A DNA stretch of 64,000 nt from Escherichia coli. GTDB lineage: Bacteria; Pseudomonadota; Gammaproteobacteria; Enterobacterales; Enterobacteriaceae. The stretch is from NCBI RefSeq assembly GCF_045037415.1, contig NZ_CP173438.1, one strand, 5' to 3'. Within the stretch, counting starts at the first letter, position 1. Each line of letters opens with the position of its first letter. Below are positions 27,931 to 29,421 of this stretch, one piece after another. The notes below the pieces were generated by a model. That model made no database searches. It was not told the origin of the DNA and saw only the letters and a program-made list of their open reading frames with translations. A program made the position numbers and the translations under genes.

Positions 27931-29421
27931 AACGCCCCAATTTTCTGTTCATCATGACCGATACCCAGGCCACCAATATGGTCGGTTGCTATAGCGGTAA
28001 GCCGCTGAATACGCAAAATATTGATAGTCTGGCGGCGGAAGGTATTCGCTTTAACTCCGCCTACACCTGTTCACCGGTTTGTACGCCTGCACGCGCCGGA
28101 CTATTCACCGGTATCTACGCTAACCAGTCCGGCCCGTGGACCAACAACGTCGCGCCAGGCAAAAACATCTCCACTATGGGGCGCTACTTTAAGGATGCCG
28201 GCTATCACACCTGTTACATCGGCAAATGGCATCTCGACGGTCATGACTATTTCGGCACCTGGCGAGTGTCCGCCGGAGTGGGACGCTGATTACTGGTTCG
28301 ATGGGGCGAACTATCTTAGTGAACTGACGGAAAAAGAGATTAGCCTGTGGCGCAATGGCCTAAACAGCGTCGAAGATTTACAGGCGAACCATATTGACGA
28401 AACCTTCACCTGGGCGCACCGCATCAGCAATCGGGCGGTGGATTTTCTGCAACAGCCCGCGCGCGCCGACGAACCTTTCCTGATGGTGATTTCGTATGAT
28501 GAGCCGCATCACCCGTTCACCTGTCCGGTGGAGTATTTAGAGAAATACACTGATTTTTACTACGAACTGGGTGAGAAAGCAGAGGATGACCTGGCGAACA
28601 AACCGGAACATCACCGCTTATGGGCGCAGGCGATGCCATCGCCAGTCGGTGATGACGGGCTTTATCACCATCCGCTCTATTTTGCCTGCAATGACTTTGT
28701 TGATGACCAAATCGGACGGGTCATCAACGCCTTAACGCCAGAGCAACGTGAAAATACGTGGGTTATTTATACCTCCGATCACGGCGAAATGATGGGCGCA
28801 CATAAGCTGATCAGTAAAGGAGCGGCGATGTATGACGACATCACCCGCATTCCGCTGATCATCCGTTCGCCGCAAGGGGAGCGGCGACAGGTCGATACGC
28901 CAGTCAGTCATATTGACTTACTGCCGACAATGATGGCGCTGGCAGATATTGAAAAACCAGAGATTCTGCCGGGGGAAAATATCCTTGCCGTAAAAGAACC
29001 ACGTGGCGTGTTGGTGGAATTTAATCGCTACGAGATTGAGCATGACAGCTTTGGCGGTTTTATTCCGGTGCGTTGCTGGGTAACGGATGACTTTAAACTG
29101 GTGCTCAACCTCTTCACCAGTGATGAACTTTACGATCGCCGTAATGACCCAAATGAAATGCATAACCTGATCGATGATATCCATTTTGCCGACGTTCGCA
29201 GCAAAATGCATGACGCCTTATTGGATTACATGGACAAAATTCGCGATCCGTTCCGCAGTTATCAATGGAACCTGCGTCCGTGGCGCAAAGATGCACAACC
29301 GCGCTGGATGGGGGCGTTTCGTCCACGCCCACAGGATGGTTATTCTCCAGTGGTACGCGACTATGACACCGGTTTACCGACACAAGGGGTGAAGGTGGAA
29401 GAGAAAAAACAGAAGTTCTGA
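27927..29421 (+). pseudogene. yidJ: sulfatase YidJ, disrupted by a +1 frameshift near 28260
   Basis: Two overlapping ORFs in different frames (27927-28289 and 28021-29421) together make one full-length sulfatase with the C-x-P-x-R motif (CTPAR); the frame changes at GGCACC-T-GGCGAG. Confidence 0.8.

Follow-up and report, generated by a model that had tools for sequence, protein, structure and literature searches.

The yidJ gene of Escherichia coli, which encodes a putative sulfatase, is divided between two reading frames in the 64,000-nucleotide stretch of chromosome analysed here (the window), and this raises the question of whether the gene has been genuinely lost, still yields a protein by recoding or as two separate pieces, or merely appears broken through a sequencing error. 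The former coding region occupies 1,495 nt of the plus strand (27927..29421), compared to 1,494 nt in the intact gene. Its 5' ORF (27927..28289, plus strand) encodes 120 aa ending in ...HDYFGTWRVSAGVGR, of which 111 are authentic and the last 9 (WRVSAGVGR) are out of frame. The 3' remainder (28261..29421, plus strand) lies in the +1 frame and comprises G112..F497 (386 codons) plus the stop codon; the ORF in this frame, which ends at 29421, reads ...GECPPEWDADYWFDG... starting at 28261. According to the ORF listing, the two frames overlap at 28021..28289. A preliminary description of the locus had reported an interrupted sulfatase frame, and this was borne out by the premature TGA at 28287..28289 and the continuation of the gene in the +1 frame. 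Its view that the two ORFs together make up one full-length sulfatase also held, given that removal of a single base at the junction, a sequence found once in the window, yields an open frame of 497 codons, equal in length to K-12 yidJ.

The window gene is 96.9% identical at the nucleotide level to K-12 b3678 and 100% identical to the EC958 and SA186 loci annotated in RefSeq as 'yidJ, sulfatase-like hydrolase/transferase, frameshifted'. In the alignment around the lesion, both K-12 MG1655 and SE15 read GGC ACT GGC GAG, whereas the window reads GGC ACC TGG CGA G. The lesion (28258..28259, plus strand) is thus a CC in place of the single C of intact alleles (ACT -> ACCT), adding 1 nt after codon 110, and the gene-wide alignment shows a gap opposite 28258 as the only difference between the SE15 and window genes. 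With intact orthologues in SE15 and K-12 and an indel of 1 nt, which is no multiple of 3, the locus has the makings of a frameshift pseudogene. The preliminary description was right in placing one extra base within 28255-28265, but its identification of that base as a T near 28260 did not stand: it is a duplicated C at 28258/28259. The choice between T and C is undecidable from the window sequence alone, because both repairs encode the same protein. Deletion of T28260 was tried as a repair and rejected, since none of 5,131 genomes matched the result at 100%; the extra base being C rather than T, the intact form is ACT, not ACC. The alignment to K-12 yidJ, proposed earlier as a check, returned an intact reference of 1,494 nt to which the window adds 1 nt, rather than a reference with the same sequence in an uninterrupted frame.

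To determine how widespread the allele is, we used a 61-nt query centred on the lesion. Of the 5,083 complete E. coli genomes in which the stretch is present, 410 yielded the exact allele; these counts refer to exact 61-mers in complete genomes only, and carriers with a nearby SNP are missed. In the remaining 4,673 the alignment spans 60 nt, and the extra base is therefore missing. Carriers include EC958, JJ1886, JJ1887, SA186 and several strains labelled O25b:H4-ST131. A single-frame yidJ is found in >90% of E. coli genomes and in the closest relative, and the gene is also dispensable elsewhere, because 295 of 5,426 complete genomes give no yidJ match at all. The same sequence with the same lesion is annotated as 'yidJ, frameshifted' in RefSeq under EC958_RS21215 (EC958) and CHQ92_RS12285 (SA186). 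The feature is thus already on public record; the present analysis adds which base was inserted, how the allele is distributed over the clades and how many genomes carry it. Among the matches listed in a full-text literature search for yidJ, none concerned ST131 or its frameshift and none characterised YidJ; one paper mentions an enrichment of yidJ and yidL in gastrointestinal Escherichia cryptic clade II strains.

Within ST131, SE15 serves as the reference for clade A, and EC958 and JJ1886 belong to clade C (PMC4584265), as does JJ1887; SA186 has been typed as O25b:H4, clade B, fimH22 (PMC6498225). Ecol_743 and Ecol_448 have been placed in 'clades A and B' with no statement of which is which (PMC5608912), and were left out of the clade evidence. 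The window itself matches EC958 without a single difference over positions 1..50279; from 50280 onward, inside a genomic island, the two diverge. The window thus comes from an ST131 clade C-type chromosome other than that of EC958. The intact yidJ protein of SE15 (WP_000828477.1) is also encoded by Eco889, DA33135 and C7. A 7.5-kb comparison could not assign these three genomes to clade A versus clade B; Eco889 and DA33135 were placed after extension to 41.5 kb, and C7 was left at 7.5 kb. In the 41.5-kb alignment, three substitutions (window positions 14079, 14378 and 16953) split the genomes exactly as the yidJ indel does, with the window and SA186 on one side and SE15, Eco889 and DA33135, all with intact yidJ, on the other. 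Furthermore, the B/C-type alleles at 16953 and 14079 were detected in 412 and 411 genomes, respectively, compared to 410 for the extra C. As judged from these markers, the insertion is essentially coextensive with the ST131 B/C lineage. Since clades B and C carry the allele and clade A does not, the insertion arose once, between the split of clade A and the separation of the SA186 ancestor from that of clade C; clade B is represented in this comparison by one literature-typed genome, SA186, and early clade B sublineages could still be intact. The clade A split has been dated to ~130 years before the study in question (PMC4807372), and the lack of any further change in yidJ fits an event so recent.

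Two fimH-based approaches were abandoned. The fimH His166 61-mer, taken from EC958 as a marker of clade C size, was detected in 442 genomes and dropped because it is also carried by Nissle 1917 and is thus not ST131-specific, and typing of SK1144 by fimH was uninformative, most of its fim operon being gone through an IS1 insertion. Seven substitutions within the 41.5 kb (8813, 14513, 31645, 32062, 34892, 36818 and 40270) distinguish the EC958-like window from SA186 and from SE15, Eco889 and DA33135, and only ~50-60 core SNVs genome-wide have been reported to separate clade B from clade C (PMC4807372). The stretch thus looks several-fold enriched in B/C substitutions; a recombination tract could account for this, as could an early branching of the SA186 lineage. 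The island portion of the window (50280..64000) shows 9,676 mismatches to EC958 when compared position by position, and its EC958 counterpart carries Ag43, CbtA/YeeU toxin-antitoxin genes and antirestriction genes. The divergence from 50280 shows that the window stems from a strain other than EC958, with a different island content.

An interrupted frame need not abolish the protein, and we considered whether a programmed +1 ribosomal frameshift or transcriptional slippage still gives full-length, functional YidJ. The overlap of the two frames at 28021..28289 would permit such recoding, and apart from the lesion the gene is undamaged when compared with the intact allele of SE15. However, neither a slippery nor a hungry-codon motif is present at the site itself, UUC GGC ACC UGG CGA, nor is there a CUU-UGA of the prfB type preceded by a Shine-Dalgarno sequence; the 0-frame stop stands in the context CGC-UGA-U, and the sole homopolymer of >=5 bases within 28100..28300 is AAAAA at 28161, ~100 nt upstream. 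Programmed frameshifts are conserved over deep phylogeny. The shifted frame of yidJ is instead confined to one marker-defined lineage (410/5,083 genomes), with all other genomes single-frame, and the clone that carries it split from clade A only ~130 years ago (PMC4807372). We thus regard recoding as very improbable.

To assess what the interruption does to the protein, we analysed the sequence with the frame repaired. The repaired protein contains the Pfam Sulfatase domain (PF00884) at residues 4-341 (E = 8.7e-72) and an SGSH_C region at residues 300-434 (Pfam search), and residues 2-444 align with sulfatases in the PDB (E-values 4.6e-46 to 2.6e-38). C52-T-P-A-R56, the sole C/S-x-P-x-R match in the protein, is the formylglycine motif and lies upstream of the break, as do D12 and K100/H102, whereas SDHGEM (283-288), AHK (291-293), the rest of the sulfatase domain and the SGSH_C region lie downstream. 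For the active-site roles of these YidJ residues, we rely on what is established for S1 sulfatases. The Pfam Sulfatase domain is cut after Thr111, and the premature stop removes D284/H285 and K293. The 5' piece matches only profile positions ~1-108 of the NCBIfam arylsulfatase/choline-sulfatase models, far under their cut-offs. With the polypeptide interrupted after residue 111, no continuous chain carries the whole catalytic domain. Thus, the window allele appears to be the remnant of a type I formylglycine-dependent sulfatase rather than a functional member of the family, and the 120-aa product, which is missing some two thirds of the catalytic domain and with them Asp284/His285, would not be expected to be an active sulfatase.

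The same domain analysis bears on whether both ORFs might be translated, with the products assembling into an active enzyme or serving separate functions. Each piece partly matches sulfatase models, and PGAP calls two CDSs in many carrier genomes, WP_001296570.1 and WP_228955806.1, the latter of 408 aa and starting from ATG 28195. Yet the break lies inside a single alpha/beta catalytic domain, with active-site residues on both pieces, and both score far under the NCBIfam cut-offs. Moreover, at the second start, ATG 28195, the AAGG sequence abuts the ATG, a poor spacing for initiation, and translation from this codon would add 22 out-of-frame residues, which are indeed the first 22 residues of WP_228955806.1. 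Other records annotate the identical sequence as a pseudogene; the two-CDS calls thus reflect the annotation run, not biology. A functional split gene is, in our estimation, most unlikely.

It is also conceivable that the extra base is absent from the DNA of the organism, single-base indels being a common type of error in long-read assemblies. Against this, the same allele is present in 410 complete genomes from many laboratories, including EC958 and JJ1886, as well as in SA186, which was assembled from PacBio reads. In addition, the lesion context is a CC dinucleotide with no long homopolymer, independent SNP markers, detected in 411-412 genomes, segregate together with the allele, and clade A genomes with an otherwise identical yidJ lack it. 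The likelihood of an error at this position is close to nil, and for the lineage as a whole, an error can be considered excluded on the basis of these comparisons. The recurrence of the allele in 410 complete genomes, together with its co-segregation with lineage markers, likewise supports the preliminary description in reading the locus as a pseudogene and not as an error. Phase variation was rejected, there being no slippery site or long repeat and the allele being confined to a recent clone.

We therefore have very high confidence that yidJ of the window represents a genuine, vertically inherited and clone-specific loss-of-function frameshift allele, of ordinary kind and recent origin. The simplest cause would be a replication error that duplicated the C in codon 111 (ACT -> ACC-T), in the ancestor shared by ST131 clades B and C, when clade A had already split off. 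Translation from the normal start would then leave the frame past Thr111, add nine unrelated residues and stop at the TGA at 28287, and the allele would have reached fixation along with the expanding clone. The ~1.1 kb of untranslated mRNA downstream could in addition give rise to Rho-dependent polarity on yidH, yidG and yidF.

To evaluate what was lost, we compared the intact K-12 and SE15 genes, which differ at 38 synonymous and 8 nonsynonymous positions (dN/dS 0.053). The intact gene is thus under strong purifying selection, so that a maintained function has been lost in the B/C lineage. The window gene carries no further damage and otherwise matches SE15 throughout; this is consistent with a recent event and is by itself no proof of inactivity. 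Whether the loss of YidJ was selected rather than neutral in the ST131 B/C ancestor, that is, an adaptive gene loss, is a separate matter, and we consider it unlikely: the single event, the fixation and the intact neighbouring genes are compatible with adaptive loss and provide no positive support for it. If true, the loss might, for example, have altered the handling of a sulfated compound, of host or dietary origin, that the intact YidK imports, and the insertion would have contributed to the success of the clone rather than hitchhiking with it.

Under the reading of yidJ as a recent, ordinary loss-of-function allele, the biological weight of the event is small, with one uncharacterised, dispensable putative sulfatase lost in one clone. 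The extra C at 28258/28259 would nevertheless serve, in complete genomes, as a clean single-event marker that distinguishes ST131 clades B/C from clade A. Furthermore, the two RefSeq annotation styles applied to one sequence can inflate gene counts and create spurious families in ST131 pangenomes, and EC958, JJ1886 and other B/C strains are unsuitable as a yidJ wild-type background for work on YidJ/YidK.

The solute:sodium symporter gene yidK (26215..27930, plus strand) is intact (NCBIfam NF007790, 855 bits), and 4 nt (ATGA) are shared between its stop and the start of yidJ. According to the annotation of identical loci, the divergently transcribed gene of the AraC-family regulator yidL (25182..26048, minus strand) is intact as well. 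Downstream of yidJ, annotation places yidH (29481..29828, plus strand) and yidG (29818..30180, plus strand), followed by yidF (30177..30674, plus strand), which encodes a 165-aa 'radical SAM protein', a remnant of an anaerobic sulfatase maturase. The yidF product matches only positions ~160-245 of the 363-position TIGR03942 model, with 78 bits against a cut-off of 349. It appears to be without the N-terminal part of the maturase and has the same 165-aa form in K-12; the maturase beside yidJ thus looks degenerate across E. coli, as judged from its sequence.

The window also differs from K-12 in gene content. There is no yidI, the interval between the old yidJ stop and yidH being 59 nt (29422..29480), and glvG, glvB, glvC and most of yidP are missing; a remnant of the yidP 3' end (104 nt, 77% identical) is all that is present between yidL and yidE, in the region of 25089..25182. 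The gene order around yidJ in SE15 is that of the window.

Several other features of the window were noted. A DUF6708-domain gene (34519..35379, minus strand) carries a TGG -> TAG nonsense mutation at codon 163 (SNP 34892) in the window and in EC958, where RefSeq records an 'internal stop', and encodes the intact protein WP_000556883.1 in SE15, SA186, Eco889 and DA33135. Given that the gene is intact in SA186, this is a second pseudogene, younger than the split from SA186 (clade B). The toxin gene tisB and the small RNA istR, located between ysdE and ivbL in MG1655, had no BLAST match in the whole window, nor was an Rfam IstR match found, and the type I toxin-antitoxin locus tisB/istR is thus absent at 32023..32266, between ysdE and ivbL. 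Two RNA elements scored above the Rfam gathering threshold, namely AsdA, the antisense RNA of dnaA mRNA (6579..6659, minus strand; 99.7 bits), and the ROSE_2 RNA thermometer upstream of ibpA (22214..22286, plus strand; 96.6 bits); both are expected in this chromosomal region. Finally, uhpT of SE15, the gene for the hexose-phosphate transporter (31495..32885 of the SE15 locus), is annotated as frameshifted. It has a 1-nt deletion at window position 40784 that is not found in the other aligned genomes, and would seem to be a pseudogene private to this clade A reference.

Among known systems, the sulfatases of family S1 provide the structural counterparts of the repaired protein. These include 9ihk 'Sulfatase_S1_30A', the exo-2S-iota-carrageenan sulfatase 6pt4 and the Bacteroides 'putative sulfatase yidJ' 2qzu. 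Conservation between the repaired YidJ and the solved S1 sulfatases extends to the C/S-x-P-x-R region. Unlike those enzymes, the repaired YidJ starts directly with the sulfatase domain and is presumably cytoplasmic. With prfB, the locus shares the arrangement in which a full-length product would need a +1 shift, with a 0-frame UGA shortly downstream; unlike prfB, the yidJ site has neither the CUU-UGA nor the upstream Shine-Dalgarno stimulator and is not conserved outside one recent clone. K-12 MG1655 carries the orthologous locus between yidK and yidH (b3678, NP_418134.1, 'putative sulfatase/phosphatase YidJ'), an intact gene with the same 497-codon frame as the window after removal of the extra C, its product differing from the intact SE15 YidJ by 8 amino acids. 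In K-12, yidI separates yidJ from yidH, and glvGBC-yidP separates yidL from yidE; the window is without these genes. The closest counterpart is yidJ of SE15 (ST131 clade A), which is identical to the window gene at all 1,494 positions and, with one C in place of the CC of the window, is intact. On this comparison, the SE15 gene is the immediate intact form of the window allele.
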